Origin: an uncultured delta proteobacterium
GTDB taxonomy: Bacteria > Myxococcota > Myxococcia > Myxococcales > Myxococcaceae
Assembly: GCA_963776345.1 (NCBI GenBank)
Contig: CAVZMH010000022.1
Coordinates: 352,001-416,000, forward strand
Direction of reading: 5' to 3'
Length of the DNA: 64,000 bases
The translations under genes and the position numbers were made by a program. Positions 25,239 through 33,964 of the stretch are shown here, piece after piece. The stretch's first letter is position 1. Every line of letters begins with the position of its first letter. The notes beneath the pieces were generated by a model, which saw only the letters and a program-made list of their open reading frames with translations, had not been told where the DNA came from and did not search any database.

Positions 25239-25280
25239 CCGAGGCCCGGGAGCGGTCGCGGTCGCTCCGCCGGGCCTCGG
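25239..25280. terminator. Stem-loop between convergent genes
   Basis: CCGAGGCCCGG..GGAGCG / CGCTCC..CCGGGCCTCGG inverted repeat; no clear U-tract. Confidence 0.55.
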
Positions 25281-25422: not shown

Positions 25423-25599
25423 TCAGGCCCTCGGTCCGCCCACCTGGGCGGTGTGGTTGGAGTAGTTGTCGATCAGCGCGGCGCTCGCGCCCACGTAGCC
25501 GGCGACCAGCAGCGCGCCGCTGAGGATGAAGGGGATGGGGCTCCACCGGCGGGCGGAGCGGAACAGCTGGGGATTGGGGTTGGTGGTCTCGGGCTTCAT
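25423..25599 (-). CDS. Small single-TM protein, paralogue 1 (58 aa)
   Basis: GGAGG RBS; MKPETTNPNPQLFRSARRWSPIPFILSGALLVAGYVGASAALIDNYSNHTAQVGGPRA; sigma54 promoter upstream. Confidence 0.75.
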   Translation of the reverse strand: MKPETTNPNPQLFRSARRWSPIPFILSGALLVAGYVGASAALIDNYSNHTAQVGGPRA

Positions 25600-25637
25600 G
25601 GCGTCCTCCGTCAGGTGTCTCGATGAGGCTGGGACAT

Positions 25638-25653
25638 TGCACCGGCGGTGCCA
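25638..25653 (-). promoter_or_regulatory. sigma54 -24/-12 promoter of paralogue 1
   Basis: Minus strand TGGCACCGCCGGTGCA (GG-N10-GC). Confidence 0.75.
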
Positions 25654-25717
25654 GCCCGGCTCGACCCCGCCGGCCCCGGAGTTCCGGGCGGTTGTCGGCT
25701 CCCCGGTCGTGCAGGGC

Positions 25718-25768
25718 ATTGCGCAGCGTGTGACAAGGCTCCGCCCGGATGTCGCGTCCGGTGCAACG
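25718..25768. promoter_or_regulatory. Candidate EBP enhancer (paired imperfect palindromes) for paralogue 1
   Basis: ATTGC-N7-GTGAC (25718-25734) and GTCGC-N7-GCAAC (25751-25767); 25747-25768 matches 26185-26206 at 19 of 22 positions. Confidence 0.55.
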
Positions 25769-25880
25769 TGCCCGTTTGCGGGACGGGCGGTGTGCGCATC
25801 CGGCCCGCTCGCGGAAAGCACGACGGCCCGGGACGTCCATCGTCCCGGGCCGCCGGGTGTTGCCTGCCGCCGCCTCGCGC

Positions 25881-26051
25881 TCAGGCGATCTGGTCGACGC
25901 TCGAGGGGACCACCGAGTAGTCGCGGATCATCACCGCGGCGCCACAGAAGTACCCGAGCACCACGAGGATTCCCACGAGGAGCCCATGCGAGCGACGGCG
26001 AGAGGTCTGGAAGATGTTGGAAACGGACTCGGTCTGGGGACTCATCGTCAT
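25881..26051 (-). CDS. Small single-TM protein, paralogue 2 (56 aa)
   Basis: GGAGGAG RBS; MTMSPQTESVSNIFQTSRRRSHGLLVGILVVLGYFCGAAVMIRDYSVVPSSVDQIA (start could be 26045). Confidence 0.72.
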   Translation of the reverse strand: MTMSPQTESVSNIFQTSRRRSHGLLVGILVVLGYFCGAAVMIRDYSVVPSSVDQIA

Positions 26052-26087
26052 CTCTCCTCCGGCGGCATGCCGGCGCCGCGCTGCCTG

Positions 26088-26103
26088 TGCAGCGCTCGTG
26101 CCG
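26088..26103 (-). promoter_or_regulatory. sigma54 -24/-12 promoter of paralogue 2
   Basis: Minus strand CGGCACGAGCGCTGCA (GG-N10-GC). Confidence 0.7.
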
Positions 26104-26156
26104 GGCGCGGCGCGGCGTGGTTGCGGGCGCTTACGGGCTGAGCGCACACCGCCACC

Positions 26157-26206
26157 CGTGCAACCGCGGTCACGCCTGTGCCGTGGATGGTGCGTCCGGC
26201 GCAACG
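26157..26206. promoter_or_regulatory. Candidate EBP enhancer for paralogue 2
   Basis: GGATGGTGCGTCCGGCGCAACG (26185-26206) plus a weaker CGTGC-N7-GTCAC (26157-26173). Confidence 0.5.
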
Positions 26207-26223
26207 GCGCCGGCCCGCTCGGG

Positions 26224-27639
26224 TCAATCCCGGACGTGGTGCCGCTTGATGAGCCGGTAGAGGTGCACCCGGTCGATGTCGGCCGAGGCCGCCGCCTGGG
26301 ACACCTTGCCGCCGTGCAGCTGGAGAAGCGCCTCGACGTACTGCCGCTCGAAGGCGTCGAGGGCCCGCCGGCGGGCTTCCGGATAGGGCACCCGGGGGTC
26401 GATGGTGTTCGGCGCGTCGTCGGCCGGACGTCCCGTCTCCTCGCCCTCGCCCGGGAGCAACGTTTCTTGAAGCACCACGCAGCGCTCGAGGTGGTTCCGC
26501 AGCTCCCGGATGTTCCCCGGCCACGCGGAGCGCTGCAGCTGGGCGATGAAGGGCGGATCCACCAGGGTGGCCTTCACCCGCGCGTCGGCGCCGAGCCCGC
26601 TGAGGAGCTTGTCGACGATCAGCGGGATGTCCTCGGCCCGCTGGCGCAGAGCAGGGAGGGGGATCTTCACCACTGCCAGACGGAAGTAGAGGTCCGACCG
26701 GAAGCGGCCGGCGTTCACCTCCGCGCGGAGGTCGCGGTTGGTGGCGGTGATGATGCGCACGTCCACCGGGGTGTAGGTGTTGCTCCCGAGCTTCCGGATC
26801 TCCCGCGCCTCGAGAACCCGCAGCATCTTCGGCTGGAGCTCGACCGGAAGCTCGCCGATCTCGTCGAGGAACACCGTGCCGCCCCGCGCCTCCTCGAAGA
26901 CGCCCACCCGCCGGTTGACCGCCCCGGTGAAGGCGCCCTTCTCGTGCCCGAACAGCTCGGACTCGAGCAGGTTGGGCGGGAGCGCGCCGCAGTCCACCAC
27001 CAGGAAGTGGTGTTCGCGCCGGCTCGACTGGCGGTGGATGGACTCGGCCGCCTGGCTCTTCCCGGTGCCGGTCTCGCCCTCGAGGAGCACGGTGGAGTCG
27101 GACGCCGCGGCACGCTCCATCAGGGCGAAGCTCATCCGCGCGGCCACCGAGGTGCCCACCAGCGAGCCGAAGCGAGGGAGCTCCGAGAGCTGCAGCTTGG
27201 TCTTCTCTCCGGAGAGCTCGAAGCGGAGCACCACCCGCCCGAGCTGGAGCAGACTCCCGTTGCGGACCGCCGCCTCCTTCACCAGCACGCCGTCGACCAC
27301 GGTGCCGTTCCGGCTCGCCAGGTCCTTGGCCCAGACGCCCTTGTCGTCGACCAGGAGCTCGCAGTGGAAACGGGACACCGTCCGCTCGTCGAGCAGGACG
27401 TCGTTGAGCGGGTGACTCCCGATGGAGGTTCGCTCGCCGGCGGACTCGAAGCTCTGGCCCGCGCCGGCACCTTCCACCACCCGCAGCCGGAAGCGGCGCA
27501 CGTCCGGAGGGCCGGCAGACCGGCCTCCGATTCCGTACGTCGCCGTCGCGTGCGCGTCCCGCTCCGCCGACGGTGGAGAGTCGACGCTGTTCGGCTCCTC
27601 GGGGATTTCCCGACTCTTCTCGCGCCCTGGCATCCGCAT
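26224..27639 (-). CDS. FHA-domain sigma54-dependent enhancer-binding protein (FHA-AAA+-Fis HTH)
   Basis: FHA (IGSHP, VSRFH, DLASRNGT), Walker A GETGTGKS, ESELFGHEKGAFTGA, FLDEIGE, FRSDLYFRL, WPGNIREL, C-terminal HTH. Start approximate. Confidence 0.95.
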   Translation of the reverse strand: MRMPGREKSREIPEEPNSVDSPPSAERDAHATATYGIGGRSAGPPDVRRFRLRVVEGAGAGQSFESAGERTSIGSHPLNDVLLDERTVSRFHCELLVDDKGVWAKDLASRNGTVVDGVLVKEAAVRNGSLLQLGRVVLRFELSGEKTKLQLSELPRFGSLVGTSVAARMSFALMERAAASDSTVLLEGETGTGKSQAAESIHRQSSRREHHFLVVDCGALPPNLLESELFGHEKGAFTGAVNRRVGVFEEARGGTVFLDEIGELPVELQPKMLRVLEAREIRKLGSNTYTPVDVRIITATNRDLRAEVNAGRFRSDLYFRLAVVKIPLPALRQRAEDIPLIVDKLLSGLGADARVKATLVDPPFIAQLQRSAWPGNIRELRNHLERCVVLQETLLPGEGEETGRPADDAPNTIDPRVPYPEARRRALDAFERQYVEALLQLHGGKVSQAAASADIDRVHLYRLIKRHHVRD

Positions 27640-27667
27640 CCGCGAACCTACTCCCGAAGGCGACGCC

Positions 27668-27716
27668 TTGACCGGCCGCGCAACAGCGGATCCCGCTCCG
27701 TGGCGCCGACCGCAAC
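27668..27716. promoter_or_regulatory. Candidate EBP enhancer for paralogue 3, in the divergent EBP/paralogue-3 gap
   Basis: TTGAC-N7-GCAAC (27668-27684) and GTGGC-N7-GCAAC (27700-27716), 32 bp apart. Confidence 0.45.
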
Positions 27717-27767
27717 GCGGGCGACGTAAGACCCAAGTGAATTCAAGGAGATGGAGTCCGTTCGGGC

Positions 27768-27783
27768 TGGCCTCAGGGGTGCA
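27768..27783 (+). promoter_or_regulatory. sigma54 -24/-12 promoter of paralogue 3
   Basis: TGGCCTCAGGGGTGCA (GG-N10-GC). Confidence 0.65.
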
Positions 27784-27841
27784 ATCCGATCCTGGCGTGG
27801 CCGGCGACGAACGCTGGCCTCCCCTTCGACCGGAGACCGCC

Positions 27842-28018
27842 ATGAAGACCTCGCAGACCTCGCTCAAGTCCTTCGAACAGATCGCCCGCAGCCGTGGCCT
27901 GGGCACGCTCGCCGTCGGCGGGCTGCTGATCGCCTTCTGGCTCGGTGGGCACGGCGCGCTCTACAGCGCCTACCGCGTCACCCGCTCCCACGCGCCGGTG
28001 GTGGTCGAGGCGGAGTGA
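27842..28018 (+). CDS. Small single-TM protein, paralogue 3 (58 aa, most divergent)
   Basis: GGAG RBS; MKTSQTSLKSFEQIARSRGLGTLAVGGLLIAFWLGGHGALYSAYRVTRSHAPVVVEAE. Confidence 0.72.
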   Translation: MKTSQTSLKSFEQIARSRGLGTLAVGGLLIAFWLGGHGALYSAYRVTRSHAPVVVEAE

Positions 28019-28027
28019 GGACGAGAG

Positions 28028-28060
28028 AGGGGCGTCGACCGGGACCCGGTCGAAGCCCTT
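28028..28060. terminator. Stem-loop between convergent paralogues 3 and 4
   Basis: GGGC-G-TCGACCGG gac CCGGTCGA-A-GCCC. Confidence 0.6.
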
Positions 28061-28079
28061 CGACCCATGGGCACCGGAC

Positions 28080-28259
28080 CTACCTCGAGTGCACCAGGAT
28101 GGTCGTCTCTCCCGCGAGCGGCGGCAGGGAAGACCGGGAGAAGTCCTGCATCAGCGCCGCGGAGAGCAGGAAGTACGCGAGGATCAGCGCTCCGCCGAGC
28201 AGCAGCCCGGACTCGCCGAAGACCGCGGAGCGGGGTGCATCGAAGAGCTGTGGCTGCAT
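28080..28259 (-). CDS. Small single-TM protein, paralogue 4 (59 aa)
   Basis: GGGGAG RBS; MQPQLFDAPRSAVFGESGLLLGGALILAYFLLSAALMQDFSRSSLPPLAGETTILVHSR. Confidence 0.72.
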   Translation of the reverse strand: MQPQLFDAPRSAVFGESGLLLGGALILAYFLLSAALMQDFSRSSLPPLAGETTILVHSR

Positions 28260-28305
28260 GATGGTCTCCCCTCGGCGCGCATCCGCCGGTGCGGCGCCTG
28301 GCGAC

Positions 28306-28321
28306 TGCACCGCGAGTGCCA
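28306..28321 (-). promoter_or_regulatory. sigma54 -24/-12 promoter of paralogue 4
   Basis: Minus strand TGGCACTCGCGGTGCA (GG-N10-GC). Confidence 0.75.
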
Positions 28322-28412: not shown

Positions 28413-29456
28413 TCAGCTCCGTCGCAGGCTCGCGAGCCGCCCCTTCGTCCCGGGCCACTGCCGCTCGGGCATCCGCGAGAGCAGATCCAGCACCGTGTCC
28501 TGGAGCGTCTCCTGGGGATCCCGCGCCACGAAGCCCAGCTCGCGCTCGGCCTTCCGGGCGTCCAGCCAGAACCAGTGCTCGCCGATGTCCACGCTCGCGG
28601 CGTCCAGCGCCGGCTCGCGTCCGCGGGCCTCGGCCAGCTTCTCCAGCAGCTTCGCCCCGGCGACGTTGACCTTCGAGGGAAGCCGCAGCCGCGGCGCGGG
28701 GACGCCGGAGATGCGCTCCAGCCGGCCGAAGAACTCGGACATCGACATGTTCACGCCGAGGAGGTGCTTTCCCCCCACCTCGCCCCGCTCCAGCGCGGCG
28801 ACGAACGCCTCGGCCGCGTCGCGCACGTCGACGAAGCTGATTCCCCCGCCGGGCATCGCCGGCAGGTCCCGCTGGAGGAACTTCATCACCGTCCAGGTCG
28901 AGGACAGCCGCTCGTCGCCGGGCCCGAGCAGCAGGCTCGGGTTGAGCACCACCACCGGGGGGCCGTGCTTCCTCGTGAACTCGAGGACCAGCCGCTCCTC
29001 GTAGATCTTCGAGAGGTAGTACGGCCAGCGCCCGACGACGTCGATCGGCGGGAGGTCCTCCTCGGTCGCCACCCGCTCGGTGCGCGACACGGCGACGGTC
29101 CCGCTGGTGGACGCGAGGACCAGCCGCTGCAGGCCTCCCCGCGCCCGGACCTCCTCCAGAAGCCCGCGGGTGCCGGCCACGTGCAGCCGGTACATCGCCG
29201 GCCCGTCCGCGGGGTCGAAGGAGACCATCCCCGCGAGGTGGTACAGCACGTCCACCCCGGCCAGCGCCCGCTTCACCGCGGCGCGGTCGCCGAGGTCGCC
29301 CTGCACGAACTCGCCGTGCGACAGGAGCTCCGCCGCCGGCGCGTTGCGACCCAGCATCCGCACCCGGTGCCCCGCGGCCGCGAGGAGAGGAACGACGGCC
29401 TTCCCCAGGAATCCGGTGGCCCCGGTGACCAGGATGCTCCGTGGCGTCCCGCTCAC
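28413..29456 (-). CDS. NAD-dependent epimerase/dehydratase (extended SDR), ElbE-like by position
   Basis: ILVTGATGFLG, YYLSK (YxxxK); translationally coupled behind the elbD-like gene. Confidence 0.85.
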   Translation of the reverse strand: MSGTPRSILVTGATGFLGKAVVPLLAAAGHRVRMLGRNAPAAELLSHGEFVQGDLGDRAAVKRALAGVDVLYHLAGMVSFDPADGPAMYRLHVAGTRGLLEEVRARGGLQRLVLASTSGTVAVSRTERVATEEDLPPIDVVGRWPYYLSKIYEERLVLEFTRKHGPPVVVLNPSLLLGPGDERLSSTWTVMKFLQRDLPAMPGGGISFVDVRDAAEAFVAALERGEVGGKHLLGVNMSMSEFFGRLERISGVPAPRLRLPSKVNVAGAKLLEKLAEARGREPALDAASVDIGEHWFWLDARKAERELGFVARDPQETLQDTVLDLLSRMPERQWPGTKGRLASLRRS

Positions 29457-32400
29457 CGCGGGCCTCCGCCGGAGCTCCGGCGGGGCCGGGCCGGCGCCGG
29501 CGCCAGCTCCACGTCAGGCTCGAGCCAGAACACGCCGCCCTCTCGCAGCCGTCTGACCGCCTCCTCGGCGATGCGGGTCACCAGCCGGTAGCTCTCGCTC
29601 CGGGCGAGGCCCTGGGCGCGGCGCCGCAGCTCGGCGATGCCCAGCGCGGGGCCGATGCGCACCTGGATCTCGGTCTGCTTCGGAATCATGCTGCCCTTGG
29701 GCAGCGCCTCGTACGCGCCGTGGATGTGGATGGGCAGGATGTCCACCCCGTACGTCAGCGCGAGGTAGCCGAGCGTCGGGTAGAACTCACGCATCTGCCC
29801 GTCGGGAGAGCGCGTCCCCTCGGGGAAGAGCAAGAGATGATACCCGTGCTGGAGCGCGTCCCCCGCCAGCCGCAGCGACTCGCGCAGGCTCCCGTGCCTG
29901 TCCATGGGGATGAGGTTGGTGAAGTTCTCGAACCAGGCCCGCTTGAGCGGAGTGTCGAAGAAGTAGTCGCGCGCGGCGAGCGAGGCCATGCGCCCGCCCT
30001 GCTCCCCCAGCGCGTACTTCACCAGCCCCATGTCCAGGTGCGAGCTGTGGTTGGCGATGACCAGGAAGTTCCTGCTCTGCGGGACATAGGCCTTGCCCGA
30101 GACATCCACCTTGAAGACGCCCCCGAACGTCGCCTTCTGCCAGAGGTCGAGCAGCGAGCGCCCCAGCGTGGCGACCGGGGCCGGCACCGGGATCTCCCGG
30201 CTGCCCGGCTCGACCTCGGTGCGCGCGGGCTGCAGGCGCTCGGCGGGCTCGGCCAGGCGCCGCGCCGCGGAGCCGAGCAGCCGCGCCAGGTCCTTCACCG
30301 TCTCCACCCCGGAGAGGTCACCCGCCTCGGGGAGCGCGATGCCCGCCGACTCGAGCGCCACCGACAGCTCGGTCAGCATCAGCGAGTCGAATCCGAGGTC
30401 CGCCGCGAGCCGTGACTCGGGCCGCACCTCGCTCGCCGGCTTGCCGATGACCTCGGCCACCAGGCGCTGGAGCCAGTCGGTGGAGCTGCCGTGGGCGGCG
30501 GGACGCGCCTTCTCCCCGGAGGCGGCGAGCTTCTCCAGCCTCCGCAGCTCGTCCATCACCGGCTTGCGCTTCACTTTCCGGGTGCTGGTCTTCGGCAGCT
30601 CGCCGTCCCAGAAGCGCAGGATCTTGATCCGCCGGTGGAACGGCAGCTCGGAGGAGATCCGGCGGAAGTGCTCCTCGAGCTCGGTCCGCACCTCCTCGCG
30701 GCGCCGCTCGCCGTACTCCGGCACGCAGAGGCAGGCCACCGTCTCGCCGCCGGCCTCGTCCGGGAGCCCCACCACCGAGAGCTCCTTCACCGAGCGGTGG
30801 TCCCCGTAGAGCTCCTCCAGCTCGTCGGGGTACACGTTCTTCCCGTTGGCGTCGATGATGACGTCCTTCTTGCGGCCCACCAGGTACAGCTGGCCGTCGG
30901 CGTCCAGCCGGCCGAGGTCGCCGGTGTGGAGCCAGCCATCGCGGAGGCTCGCCTCGGTGGCCTCGCGGTCGGCGAAGTAGCCGGCCATCACGTTGGGCCC
31001 GCGGGCGCACACCTCGCCGATGCCCTCGTTGTCCGGGCCGTCGATGCGCAGCTCGATGCCCGGCAGCGCCTTGCCCACGCTCCCCGGCACGCGCTTGTTG
31101 TCCGGCGCCTGCACGCTGAGCACCGGCGCCGCCTCGGTGAGGCCATAGCCCTCCGCCAGGTCGAAGCCCAGCTGGTGGAAGGCCTTGTGCACCTCGTCCG
31201 GGAGCGCCGAGCCGCCGGAGACCAGGAACTTGATCCGCCCGCCGAACTTCCTGTGCACCGGCCAGAACAGCAGCTTGCCCAGGTTGACGTTCTTCCGGTT
31301 CCGCAGCGAGCCGTGCGCGGACATCAGCGCCCGCATCGCCTGCTCGACGATGGCCGGCTTGGCCGCCAGCTCCTGGGTCACCTTCCGGTGGAACAGCGTC
31401 CACAGCGCCGGCACGCCGATCATCGCGGTCACGTGTCCGGACTCGAGCACCTCGCCCAGCCGGTCGGTGGTGAGCTCGTCGAGGTACGTCACCTCGGCCC
31501 CCCGGCTGAACGGAGTGAGGAGCCCGGCGGAGAACTCGAAAGTGTGGTGAAGCGGCAGGACGGAGAGCAGCCCGTCCCCCACCCCGAAGTCGAACGAGGC
31601 GGCGAGCTTCGGGACCAGCGATGCGAAGTTCCGGTGGGTGAGCATCACGCCCTTGGGCGTGCCGGTGGTTCCCGAGGTGAAGATGAGCGAGGCCACGTCA
31701 TCCGGTGCGGCGCTCTTCCGCACCGCGCCGACGCGCCCGGGCTGCCCCGGGTCCCCCTCCATCGCCTGCGCCAGCGTGGCCAGGCTCGCCTCCAGCGACT
31801 GCTCGGACAGCGTGCGCCACAGGCCGGCGAGGTCGTGCGCCGCGTCCTCGGAGAGCAGCACCACCCGGGCCTGGCTCCGGCGGACGATGGCCACGACCTC
31901 TGTCTCCATAGAGGCCGGGTCGACGGGGACGACGGTGGCGCCCGCGCGGAGGATGCCGAAGTAGGCGATGGGCCACTCGGGGCGGTTCTCGGAGATGAGC
32001 AGCACCCGATCGCCAGGCTTCACCCCGGTGCGAAGCAGGAAGCTCCCCACCCTCGCCGCCCAGCGGTGGACCTCGCCGTAGGTGAAGCGCTCCTCGCGGT
32101 CGTCCTCCACCCGCCGGAAGGCCACCCGGTGCCGGTGGGCGTGCACCGCGGCGTCGAACAGCTCGAGCAGGTCGCGGTGGGCGTGAATCGCCTTGCGCCG
32201 CTCGCGCTCCTCCTCGAACCCGGGGAAGACCCACTTCTCCAGCCCCGGCAGGTGCACCTCGAGGAAGTAGCGCCGCCAGTCGATCCCCTGCGGGTCCCAC
32301 GGAATCTTCGCCGCGTCCTCCGGCTCCATCGCGGCGTAGAGCGCGCGGGTGTTGTCGCAGCGAAAGACGTACCGGTTCTCCCAGAGGAAGGGCAGGAAGA

Positions 32401-33853
32401 GGTCGATCAGCGACGAGAGCGAGGAGGCCTGCTCTTCCACCCGCTCCAGCTGGTCCTTGGCCCTGTCCAGGAAAGCCGAGACCCGCGGCGCCCCCCAGCG
32501 TGGCCCGTGGTCCTCGATGCCCTGCCTCAGCAGCCGCGCACCGGTGACGAAGAGCGGGGCAGAGCGGGTGAGGAAGGTCCGCTTGGAGACCGGCTGGGGC
32601 TCCATCCGGCTCTTGATGTCGTTGAGCAGCGCGCTCCCGGTCTCCTTCTCCCGGAAGAACTTGCGCCGGTAGAGCCCCACCAGCTCCACCGATCGCGCGG
32701 CGTAGAACGGGTTCTGGTCCCCGGAGGCCTGCTGGTACACCCGCCGCTCCGGGTGGGTCAGCGCCCGCGCGGTGATGGCGATCAGCGAGCCGGCCACCAG
32801 GTCCACCGGGATGATGTCCAGGATGGCGCGCTCGCCGGCGGGCACCAGGCGGTGGCCCTTCAGGCCGGCGAACGCCAGGGGCGCCGAGGTGGTGAAGCCC
32901 TCGTTCCACCCGGGGAAGGGGTAGCGCAGCGCGCTCTCCACGATGGTCGGGCGGACGATGGCGTACGCGAGGTCCGGCGTGCCGGCGATGACCTGCTCGC
33001 CGAGCGACTTGGTGTAGGTGTAGGTGTTGGGCCAGCCCCAGCTCCGGGCGCGGTCCATCCCCGCGTCGGTGAGCTTCCGGGTGAGCCAGAGCTTCCGCTC
33101 GCGGCCGACGGCCAGGCGGAGCGTCTTCTCGTCGCGCCCGTCGCGCCCCTCCTCCTCGAGCCGCTCGATGGCGTGGGCCCGGAACTCGGAAGTGAGCGCG
33201 TGGTCCTCGGCCTGCTCGCGCAGCCGCTTCACCAGCCGGGCGGCGTCATCGAGCTCGTTCTGCAGGGAGAAGTCACGTCCGTCCAGGTCGCCCTTCCGGG
33301 GGAAGTAGCCGACGATCTCCTCATCCTCGAAGACCAGCCCGCTCCGGTTGCCGGCGACGAACGCGGTGGAGATGTGCACCAGCGGGACGTTCAGTCGCCG
33401 GCACAGCTCGACCGCGTTCCGGACCCCGTAGGTGTTGATCTTCAGCCCGACCTCGAGCGGCGGGTTGAATGAGACCAGGCCCGCGCAGTTGACGACCACG
33501 TCCACCTGGCCGGCGAGCGCCTGGAGCTCCTCGGCGGAGAGGCCGAACAGCGGGTCGGTGATGTCGCCGTCGAGCACCCTGCAGCGCGCCTGGACGAAGG
33601 CCTCGGCCCGCTCGTCCCCGTGGTGGTCCCGGAGCGGCTGGAACGGCTCGCTCCGGACGACCTTCTCCAGGAAGCGGGCCTCGGCGCTGGTGGCCGAGCC
33701 GCGCCGGACCAGGACCCAGACCCGGCCCAGCACCTCCCCGTAGCGGTGGAGGAGCATCGAGAGGGTGACCTTGCCCAGGAAGCCGGTGCAGCCGGTGAGG
33801 AGGATGCGCTTGCCGGCGAGGGCGTCGGACACCGAGAGCACGGGTGATTCCAT
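29453..33853 (-). CDS. elbD: Multifunctional fatty acyl reductase - acyl-CoA synthetase - ACP - acyltransferase (ElbD-type ether lipid biosynthesis enzyme)
   Basis: FAR: TGCTGFLGK, WPNTYTYTK, IVRPTIV. Adenylation: FTSGTTGTPKG, GYGLTE, WLHTGDLG. ACP: DLGFDSL. PlsC: NHSSHLD, FPEGTRS. Same domain order as M. xanthus ElbD. Confidence 0.88.
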   Translation of the reverse strand: MESPVLSVSDALAGKRILLTGCTGFLGKVTLSMLLHRYGEVLGRVWVLVRRGSATSAEARFLEKVVRSEPFQPLRDHHGDERAEAFVQARCRVLDGDITDPLFGLSAEELQALAGQVDVVVNCAGLVSFNPPLEVGLKINTYGVRNAVELCRRLNVPLVHISTAFVAGNRSGLVFEDEEIVGYFPRKGDLDGRDFSLQNELDDAARLVKRLREQAEDHALTSEFRAHAIERLEEEGRDGRDEKTLRLAVGRERKLWLTRKLTDAGMDRARSWGWPNTYTYTKSLGEQVIAGTPDLAYAIVRPTIVESALRYPFPGWNEGFTTSAPLAFAGLKGHRLVPAGERAILDIIPVDLVAGSLIAITARALTHPERRVYQQASGDQNPFYAARSVELVGLYRRKFFREKETGSALLNDIKSRMEPQPVSKRTFLTRSAPLFVTGARLLRQGIEDHGPRWGAPRVSAFLDRAKDQLERVEEQASSLSSLIDLFLPFLWENRYVFRCDNTRALYAAMEPEDAAKIPWDPQGIDWRRYFLEVHLPGLEKWVFPGFEEERERRKAIHAHRDLLELFDAAVHAHRHRVAFRRVEDDREERFTYGEVHRWAARVGSFLLRTGVKPGDRVLLISENRPEWPIAYFGILRAGATVVPVDPASMETEVVAIVRRSQARVVLLSEDAAHDLAGLWRTLSEQSLEASLATLAQAMEGDPGQPGRVGAVRKSAAPDDVASLIFTSGTTGTPKGVMLTHRNFASLVPKLAASFDFGVGDGLLSVLPLHHTFEFSAGLLTPFSRGAEVTYLDELTTDRLGEVLESGHVTAMIGVPALWTLFHRKVTQELAAKPAIVEQAMRALMSAHGSLRNRKNVNLGKLLFWPVHRKFGGRIKFLVSGGSALPDEVHKAFHQLGFDLAEGYGLTEAAPVLSVQAPDNKRVPGSVGKALPGIELRIDGPDNEGIGEVCARGPNVMAGYFADREATEASLRDGWLHTGDLGRLDADGQLYLVGRKKDVIIDANGKNVYPDELEELYGDHRSVKELSVVGLPDEAGGETVACLCVPEYGERRREEVRTELEEHFRRISSELPFHRRIKILRFWDGELPKTSTRKVKRKPVMDELRRLEKLAASGEKARPAAHGSSTDWLQRLVAEVIGKPASEVRPESRLAADLGFDSLMLTELSVALESAGIALPEAGDLSGVETVKDLARLLGSAARRLAEPAERLQPARTEVEPGSREIPVPAPVATLGRSLLDLWQKATFGGVFKVDVSGKAYVPQSRNFLVIANHSSHLDMGLVKYALGEQGGRMASLAARDYFFDTPLKRAWFENFTNLIPMDRHGSLRESLRLAGDALQHGYHLLLFPEGTRSPDGQMREFYPTLGYLALTYGVDILPIHIHGAYEALPKGSMIPKQTEIQVRIGPALGIAELRRRAQGLARSESYRLVTRIAEEAVRRLREGGVFWLEPDVELAPAPARPRRSSGGGPR

Positions 33854-33964
33854 GGGTTCGAGGATGTGACTATCACCGGCGGCGGCCCCGGGGTGAAGCC
33901 CGGAGCGCCGCGGCGCGTCGCTCGTGGTTCGGGGGGGCGGGCCTGCGACATCCATGGGCTAGGC

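Follow-up and report, generated by a model that had tools for sequence, protein, structure and literature searches.

Organisation of the locus

The DNA analysed here (the window) is a stretch of 64,000 nucleotides from an uncultured member of the Myxococcaceae (assembly GCA_963776345.1, contig CAVZMH010000022.1). Between its positions 25,423 and 28,321 lie four microprotein genes, which we call A, B, C and D, grouped around the gene for a bacterial enhancer-binding protein (bEBP; the protein of this locus is called the EBP below). A first-pass annotation had described the four open reading frames (ORFs), each with a Shine-Dalgarno (SD) sequence and a -24/-12 box, together with an EBP carrying an FHA domain and a sigma54 AAA+ domain with GAFTGA, and all of these were recovered at the positions listed in Table 1. 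Domain searches add a Fis-type helix-turn-helix (HTH) to the EBP, and its Walker A and Walker B motifs are present. Wherever the contigs of congeners extend far enough, the genes run A-B-EBP-C-D, with glgC/GMC on one side and elbE/elbD-like genes on the other.

The EBP start codon is probably that at 27639 and, because of orthologue length, translation of B probably begins at its second ATG. One of the candidate operator sites of C is close enough to the EBP start codon for autoregulation of the EBP to be possible, and the conserved AT-rich element downstream of it presumably resembles a site for integration host factor. Hairpins do lie at the convergent gene ends, as had been noticed at first, and after B, but no U-tailed terminator was found at the unit ends that carry them (after B, GMC/A and C/D).

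Table 1. Positions, in the window, of the genes and candidate regulatory features of the locus.
Feature	Positions	Strand	Remarks
Hairpin between convergent GMC oxidoreductase gene and A	25239..25280	.	z -2.42
Microprotein A, 58 residues	25423..25599	-	Most conserved copy; dN/dS 0.26 over 11 orthologues; AlphaFold2 (AF2) helix 22-49
-24/-12 box of A	25638..25653	-
Operator site 1 of A	25717..25735	-	81 bp from box
Operator site 2 of A	25750..25768	-	114 bp from box
Strong hairpin 3' of B, likely transcript end	25810..25870	-	z -4.41, 0/200 shuffles
Microprotein B, 56 residues; probably 54 from ATG 26045	25881..26051	-	dN/dS 0.70, weakest of the four
-24/-12 box of B	26088..26103	-
Operator site 1 of B	26156..26174	-	70 bp from box; weak score here
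Operator site 2 of B	26188..26206	-	102 bp from box
FHA-AAA+-HTH EBP, about 471 residues	26224..27639	-	Thr-bearing N-terminal extension; FHA with GS, SRFH, NG
Operator site 2 of C	27667..27685	+	100 bp from box; 28 bp upstream of EBP start codon
Operator site 1 of C	27699..27717	+	68 bp from box
Conserved AT-rich element between operator and box of C	27740..27754	+
-24/-12 box of C	27768..27783	+
Microprotein C, 58 residues	27842..28018	+	Conserved W-x-G-G-H-G-A-L-Y; dN/dS 0.45; AF2 helix 3-50
Hairpin between convergent C and D	28027..28061	.	z -2.08
Microprotein D, 59 residues	28080..28259	-	Most diverged; box present, operator absent; dN/dS 0.47
-24/-12 box of D	28306..28321	-

Coding evidence and paralogy of the microproteins

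Each of the four ORFs is preceded by a GGAG-type SD, and the G+C content at third codon positions (GC3) is 0.95, 0.86, 0.93 and 0.90 for A, B, C and D, respectively. Frame and length are preserved in the full-length orthologues, among which codon position 2 is the least variable. The ratio of non-synonymous to synonymous substitution rates (dN/dS), a check that the first-pass annotation had proposed, ranges from 0.26 to 0.70 across the four and is 0.11 for the EBP; two over-long copies were trimmed or omitted from this set, and high GC3 depresses dS.

The paralogy claimed at first was borne out by a held-out test, in which the profile of the remaining types placed each type above all decoys (63,943 six-frame segments), with E values of 7.6e-8 for A, 3.6e-6 for B, 3.3e-3 for C (best decoy 0.008) and 0.16 for D. 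Profile-profile comparisons that included E, a further type encoded elsewhere in the genome, gave probabilities of 97% for A-B, 95% for B-D, 96% for C-E, 87% for A-E and 5% for C-D. A tree separates the types, the branching order among them not being resolved. On this comparative evidence we regard A-D as real, conserved, frame-preserving paralogous genes, D being the most weakly linked, and we refer to them with their relatives as family I, many members of which are annotated by gene callers as hypothetical proteins.

Promoters, operators and a probable genome-wide regulon

The -24/-12 boxes lie 38, 36, 58 and 46 nt upstream of A, B, C and D. The motif YGGCM-N7-TGCA is ordinary in number, with 4 matches in the window against about 3 expected from shuffles; the placement of all four directly upstream of A-D is not due to chance. 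GG and GC are 10 nt apart, at -24 and -12, and are conserved, and GG-N9-TGCA was kept upstream of 44/45 copies of A-D in relatives while the spacer varies, in agreement with the sigma54-type promoters that had been proposed. A consensus of TGGCACG-N4-TTGC(T/A) and tandem EBP sites are described in the available part of PMC9765219, and the sigma54 consensus and the richness of Myxococcota in EBPs in that of PMC12316311.

Footprinting by upstream alignment revealed a conserved pseudo-palindrome, ideally TGTTGC-N7-GCAACA, before A, B and C, and the sites are often paired, about 32 bp apart. Matrices trained solely on the boxes of relatives and on the A, B and C operators were then run over the source genome, where the top-ranked sites belong, in order, to A, C, a 76-residue small protein, B, a lipoprotein-like gene, an E copy, a second lipoprotein-like gene, a 42-residue ORF and a second E copy. 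At 18 promoters outside the operator training, chosen by score without regard to phase but mutually related, 31 sites fall at 57-58, 69-70, 89-91, 100-104 and 114 bp from the box with a period of 10.8 bp (R 0.76; 0/2000 random sets), and 10 of 488 random positions bear such an operator site. Sites in helical phase are present upstream of A, B, C and remote copies. Judged by position, these paired and phased operators have the geometry of bEBP enhancers, so that the control by a bEBP first suggested for all four genes is supported for A, B and C, but not for D.

When only ORFs with an SD and high GC3 are considered, a box together with an operator marks 8/108 that are small and hydrophobic, and none of 3,331 others (0/697 other small and 0/2,634 large ORFs); these filters excluded two lipoprotein-like matches and one E copy. 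Three of the eight are A, B and C, five are independent of the training, and a second family (family II) accounts for two. The source genome holds four further copies of family I, the first three of which have both box and operator (C16:146619-146795, C1:204810-204989, C15:402063-402239 and C3:162413-162595); the C16 and C1 copies are near-duplicates, upstream DNA included. With the same box and operator at microprotein genes elsewhere in the genome, including those of a second family, the regulon is therefore not local, and the earlier picture of a mini-regulon confined to this locus had to be given up. The gene set of the activator is likely to consist almost only of microproteins.

Family II is represented by two ORFs of 76 and 83 residues (C16:354973-355203 and 355589-355840, locus L203), occurs in 12/12 congeners and has no Pfam match. 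Its N-terminus is signal-peptide-like, with a hydrophobic part ending in A-x-A followed by polar residues, and the C-terminal tail holds a conserved motif. Box and operator, mostly at 89 bp, precede 17 of the 25 listed copies from the source genus (g1); of the other eight, five have their upstream DNA cut off, two are just below the threshold and one failed. No homology between families I and II was detected (hhalign probability 29% or less).

Some other genome sites were also recorded. The 42-residue hydrophobic ORF with box and operator (C14:113531-113656, minus strand) gave one weak match in 12 (E 0.02) and has no convincing relative. At C17:76170-76680 (plus strand), box and operator precede a lipoprotein-like ORF, apparently frameshifted. 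We take its flanking genes to be RNase Z-like and CHASE2-like. In a second genus, g64, a similar position (L057) holds a family I peptide and then a small lipoprotein. At C15:614896 (minus strand), a box and two operators stand before a 307-residue lipoprotein-like ORF, after which comes a kinase fragment; the region has lower GC3 and contains integrase- and transposase-like ORFs.

The enhancer-binding protein and its possible gating

At an identity of at least 71%, the EBP is found in 13/13 g1 and 8/8 g64 genomes, which represent the two genera where boxed peptides occur; among the matches listed, the homologues that come next are 58-66% identical. In the g64 loci examined, a boxed peptide gene with an operator again comes after the EBP, and the three g64 loci compared showed no elbDE next to it. 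Near more distant EBP homologues (L133, L134, L172, L244 and L245), operator and box precede secreted-type genes, no microproteins being found there, and the operator therefore appears tied to this EBP subfamily. In the source genome the operator sites flank the EBP start, and the closest other HTH among 23 activators compared is 49% identical to that of the EBP. From this linkage and co-occurrence, it is quite likely that the operator is bound by the neighbouring EBP rather than by one of the other 27 activator domains of the genome.

The best PDB match of the EBP N-terminus is the FHA protein GarA/OdhI (E 3.5e-11). The conserved FHA motifs are GR, SXXH and NG, the Arg and Ser of which recognise phosphothreonine (10.64898/2026.01.23.701218, available part), and the last two are retained here (SRFH, RNGT). 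In the otherwise variable N-terminal extension, T-x-x-hydrophobic occurs in 89/94 EBP relatives (a count without a null model), and a Pkinase gene is present in 12/16 loci of the 58-66% homologues. The conserved Thr and these kinase neighbours suggest, with about equal chances for and against, that the EBP is gated by Ser/Thr phosphorylation.

Distribution and database searches

A search with a profile of the four peptides, as the first-pass annotation had suggested, matched 12/12 genomes of the same genus and 0/48 others; g1 genomes hold 3-10 family I matches each. Family I was also found in 8/8 g64 genomes, and weaker relatives without a box in g5 (5/5), g6 (14/23) and g57 (3/3). In a phylum sample, matches occurred in 16/114 genomes within the family and in 2/186 outside it, the latter weak and inside long ORFs; weak matches of this kind in other genera were treated as noise. 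A library-wide search yielded 42 cluster representatives.

Distant family I-like peptides were seen in g5, g6, g56 and g57, several with a Cys-x-x-x-Cys tail, and in g17 (L080-L083), the box being absent in those examined; at three such genes an upstream CGTA element may be a promoter of the extracytoplasmic function type. At three g64 loci (L072, L075 and L078), the family I gene adjoins a ParA-like ATPase cluster, which we take to resemble pomXYZ. A 60-residue single-helix ORF divergent from D (L021:5182-5361, L208 and L209) was rejected as a member, as it has no sigma54 box in its direction and occurs in only 3/12 congeners.

Searches of family I against Pfam, NCBIfam, PHROGs, PDB sequences and Rfam gave chance-level matches only (DWORF, Blr, COX14, a lysis protein and a quorum-sensing peptide), with 0 Pfam or NCBIfam matches among 54 members. 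In the ESM Atlas, an unnamed 58-residue cluster at 0.92 was found for A, possibly A's own family, and none at 0.9 for an E copy, recognition being below threshold in both. By these comparisons no known family matches A-D, a family that the first-pass annotation had not recognised either. In the open-licence literature we found no description of the peptides, the operator or a sigma54 regulon dominated by microproteins; tables of operators in subscription-only papers or in supplements may be relevant here. What appears to be new is the pair of undescribed microprotein families behind a predicted sigma54 enhancer unit of otherwise standard design, the regulation being well supported by sequence.

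Predicted products and proposed mechanism

The 19-residue hydropathy means of A-D range from 1.5 to 2.6 and, together with the AF2 models, predict one membrane helix in each. The shared layout noticed at first holds in its core, except that the N-terminus of D is not net basic (one positive and two negative residues); for the other three, the basic residues before the helix suggest an N-in topology. Over 53 representatives, a few rows of which are mis-anchored, the conserved Phe and the terminal Tyr stand at a nearly constant distance, Gly recurs at fixed positions and a stretch of small residues lies near the outer end. Identity between orthologues peaks in the juxtamembrane helix, the membrane helix and the xxY motif (0.88-0.94 in A, 0.71-0.82 in C) and is lower in the tail (0.72 in A, 0.53 in C), and paralogues share only 0-27% of their tails. 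Because conservation peaks in the membrane helix and drops in the tail, we favour modulators of membrane proteins over a released tail.

We tentatively propose, at somewhat less than an even chance for the whole, that the locus encodes four conserved paralogues on sigma54-type promoters, three of them with phased sites, likely driven by the FHA activator and likely binding and tuning other membrane proteins. Very probably, sigma54 polymerase would occupy the boxes while a bEBP at the paired TGTTGC-N7-GCAACA-like sites loops to it. Gating, which we hold to be an even question, would occur most simply through phosphorylation of the conserved Thr (T-x-x-aromatic) in the EBP's own extension, in the manner of GarA, the phosphorylated residue being read by a non-canonical FHA pocket. 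The products are predicted to enter the membrane N-in/C-out and to combine a short juxtamembrane helix with a Gly-rich helix in the membrane and a Tyr at the interface, and each paralogue may pack through its helix against a candidate membrane partner, a step with a little less than half of our confidence. By analogy, the likeliest partners would be membrane Ser/Thr kinases under MgrB-like feedback, which as a specific claim is rather unlikely; 17/26 Hanks-type kinases of the source genome have a strong hydrophobic segment. The broader idea of a regulon of at least two unrelated multicopy families, membrane-anchored (I) and exported (II), which under one FHA-type sigma54 activator would together form a peptide circuit for feedback or cell-cell signalling, acting through the Ser/Thr receptor kinases of a Gram-negative bacterium, is speculative and has a low probability.

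Several observations weigh against this proposal. At the promoters, the -12 element is [CGA]TGCA and differs from the TTGC[AT] consensus given in the available part of PMC9765219, although the -24 half fits well; no operator was found upstream of D, which has the box only, and D is itself absent at the G010 locus and skipped by one metagenome contig. The gene rpoN is absent from the source assembly; as its neighbour lptB is absent too and rpoN is present in 2/2 congeners tested (4/4 relatives tested in all), an assembly gap is likely. At C19:255194-255262 an isolated stretch of 69 bp is similar to the 3' end of rpoN, and the relative G007 has a second, partial rpoN match. The matrices and thresholds were of our own choosing, the filters dropped two lipoprotein-like matches and one family member, and the relatives are not independent of each other. 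The source genome has 28 full sigma54 activator domains, for which reason the assignment to the EBP remains indirect. The FHA domain has GS in place of the phosphothreonine-binding GR, and in the 107 relatives matched by our pattern (13/120 were not) this position is S in 101 and F in 6, canonical Arg being found in none, so that canonical phosphothreonine binding is not established; of the kinase gating through the FHA domain that was suggested at first, the Thr-bearing extension and the kinase neighbours of homologues speak for it and this substitution against it. In g1 the EBP had no kinase gene in view next to it, and the strict kinase motif, which undercounts, occurs in only 5/80 mostly distant EBP loci. 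Amphipathicity of the juxtamembrane helix is clear for A only and marginal for B.

Alternative explanations

The products could also be pre-peptides, in which the helix is a signal sequence or the substrate of an intramembrane protease and a peptide of 17-25 residues is released as a cell-cell signal, feeding back through receptor kinases in an autoinducing circuit on sigma54. We consider this unlikely. Small residues do occur at -4 to 0 ahead of a hydrophobic-L-hydrophobic-x-x-Y motif, the co-regulated family II resembles a signal peptide with a conserved exported tail, and the tail of A is 72% conserved. A pre-peptide for the Sec pathway and signal peptidase I has small residues at -3 and -1 and a polar mature start; here the small residues are not restricted to these positions, the three residues past the putative cut are still hydrophobic and the AF2 helix runs continuously through it, while only the extreme N-terminus is less conserved than the tail, and the tails of different paralogues show no relation to one another. 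Somewhat less likely again is that the peptides act as envelope-stress effectors, self-assembling in or coating the inner membrane to preserve its integrity or the proton gradient without one specific partner. The logic would be that of PspF, which drives small membrane proteins through sigma54 (PMC2763126 and PMC3068692, available parts), and the multicopy state, the Gly-rich helix and the adjoining ether-lipid genes would suit it; yet no Psp family (PspA, PspB, PspC or PspG) was matched, conservation specific to each paralogue suggests specific surfaces, and the ether-lipid genes do not accompany the EBP at the three compared loci of g64. Inducible membrane toxins or cell-wall inhibitors, like type I toxins or lysis proteins and serving dormancy, sporulation or programmed lysis, would fit the size, single helix and multicopy state, and a lysis protein in PDB (9nu8_B, E 0.5-0.65) and a holin PHROG (1/54 members, E 0.007) showed weak resemblance. 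We hold this explanation to be improbable: these matches are all at chance level, Rfam yielded no antitoxin, and the 5' leaders, as predicted, are short and in 5/6 cases do not fold better than shuffled sequences.

The remaining alternatives concern the regulator and the genes themselves. Another EBP might drive the genes, or the motifs might serve another regulator, leaving the neighbouring EBP as a bystander; the number of activator domains, the missing rpoN, the non-consensus -12 element and the lack of an operator at D allow for this, but the linkage kept in two genera, the operators flanking the EBP start and recurring near distant EBP homologues, and the dissimilarity of the next HTH make it a small chance. 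That the ORFs are untranslated, being sigma54-driven RNAs or chance frames, could draw on the dN/dS of B and is next to negligible given the conserved frame, length, SD, GC3 and codon-position pattern and the many copies called as genes. Three other candidates were rejected. Type IV and Flp pilins have a class III cleavage site with Glu at +5, and family I has no Glu column in its hydrophobic stretch and no pilin match in Pfam or NCBIfam. Tat signal peptides bear an S/T-R-R-x-F-L-K-like motif, whereas here polar residues come after the RR, a pair that C, D and most E copies do not retain. The idea that the peptides' own Thr-rich N-termini act like GarA was dismissed, the Thr spacing not being conserved and D lacking such an N-terminus.

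Comparison with known systems

Jelsbak et al. reportedly recognised FHA-domain EBPs as a class in M. xanthus in 2005. One myxobacterial member, MXAN_4899, is mentioned in the available part of PMC11980068. With these proteins the present EBP shares the FHA-AAA+-HTH architecture, sigma54 promoters and, in homologous loci, kinase neighbours; it differs in that GS replaces GR in its subfamily and in that the apparent targets in g1 and g64 are mostly microproteins. The operator is unlike the Nla28 half-site CT(C/G)CG(C/G)AG (PMC9765219, available part). The nearest system in logic is the Psp regulon (PspF, pspABCDE and pspG), where a sigma54 activator gene also lies beside targets that include small membrane proteins; there is no sequence relation, however, PspF is without FHA and is held by PspA, and many monocistronic paralogues are found here. 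In both GarA and the EBP, an unstructured extension carries a conserved Thr with an aromatic residue at the third position after it, but GarA retains GR and acts by itself as an enzyme inhibitor, whereas here the domain is part of an activator and another residue stands in for the Arg.

Among small membrane regulators, MgrB, AcrZ, KdpF and YoaI have a single helix and about 50-60 residues and are outputs of signalling systems, MgrB feeding back on its kinase PhoQ; the available part of PMC12648545, which describes them, holds no sigma54 or myxobacterial case. Unlike these non-homologous proteins, family I is one family with up to 10 copies per genome, in a proposed setting of Ser/Thr rather than His kinases. 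Type I toxins and single-gene lysis proteins, also small, single-helix and multicopy, gave no significant match; no antisense RNA was found with Rfam, and control here would instead be at the level of transcription.

The locus shows that an entire regulon can escape annotation size limits, and it yields an exact operator prediction for an FHA-EBP subfamily that is widespread in myxobacteria. Homologues with 58-66% identity in complete genomes of other genera make binding and kinase gating testable in cultivable strains. If the microproteins do tune, or signal via, Ser/Thr kinases, they would help to explain how the many eukaryote-like kinases of myxobacteria are wired to sigma54 transcription.

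Genomic surroundings

Next to D, positions 28413-33955 of the window (minus strand) carry elbE- and elbD-like ether lipid genes, encoding an epimerase and a reductase-ligase-ACP-acyltransferase (ACP, acyl carrier protein), which are conserved in g1; their labels rest on the domain order described in the available part of PMC9131029. Close homologues are annotated as Myxococcaceae in the source records, and contigs from soil and peat metagenomes carry near-identical DNA.

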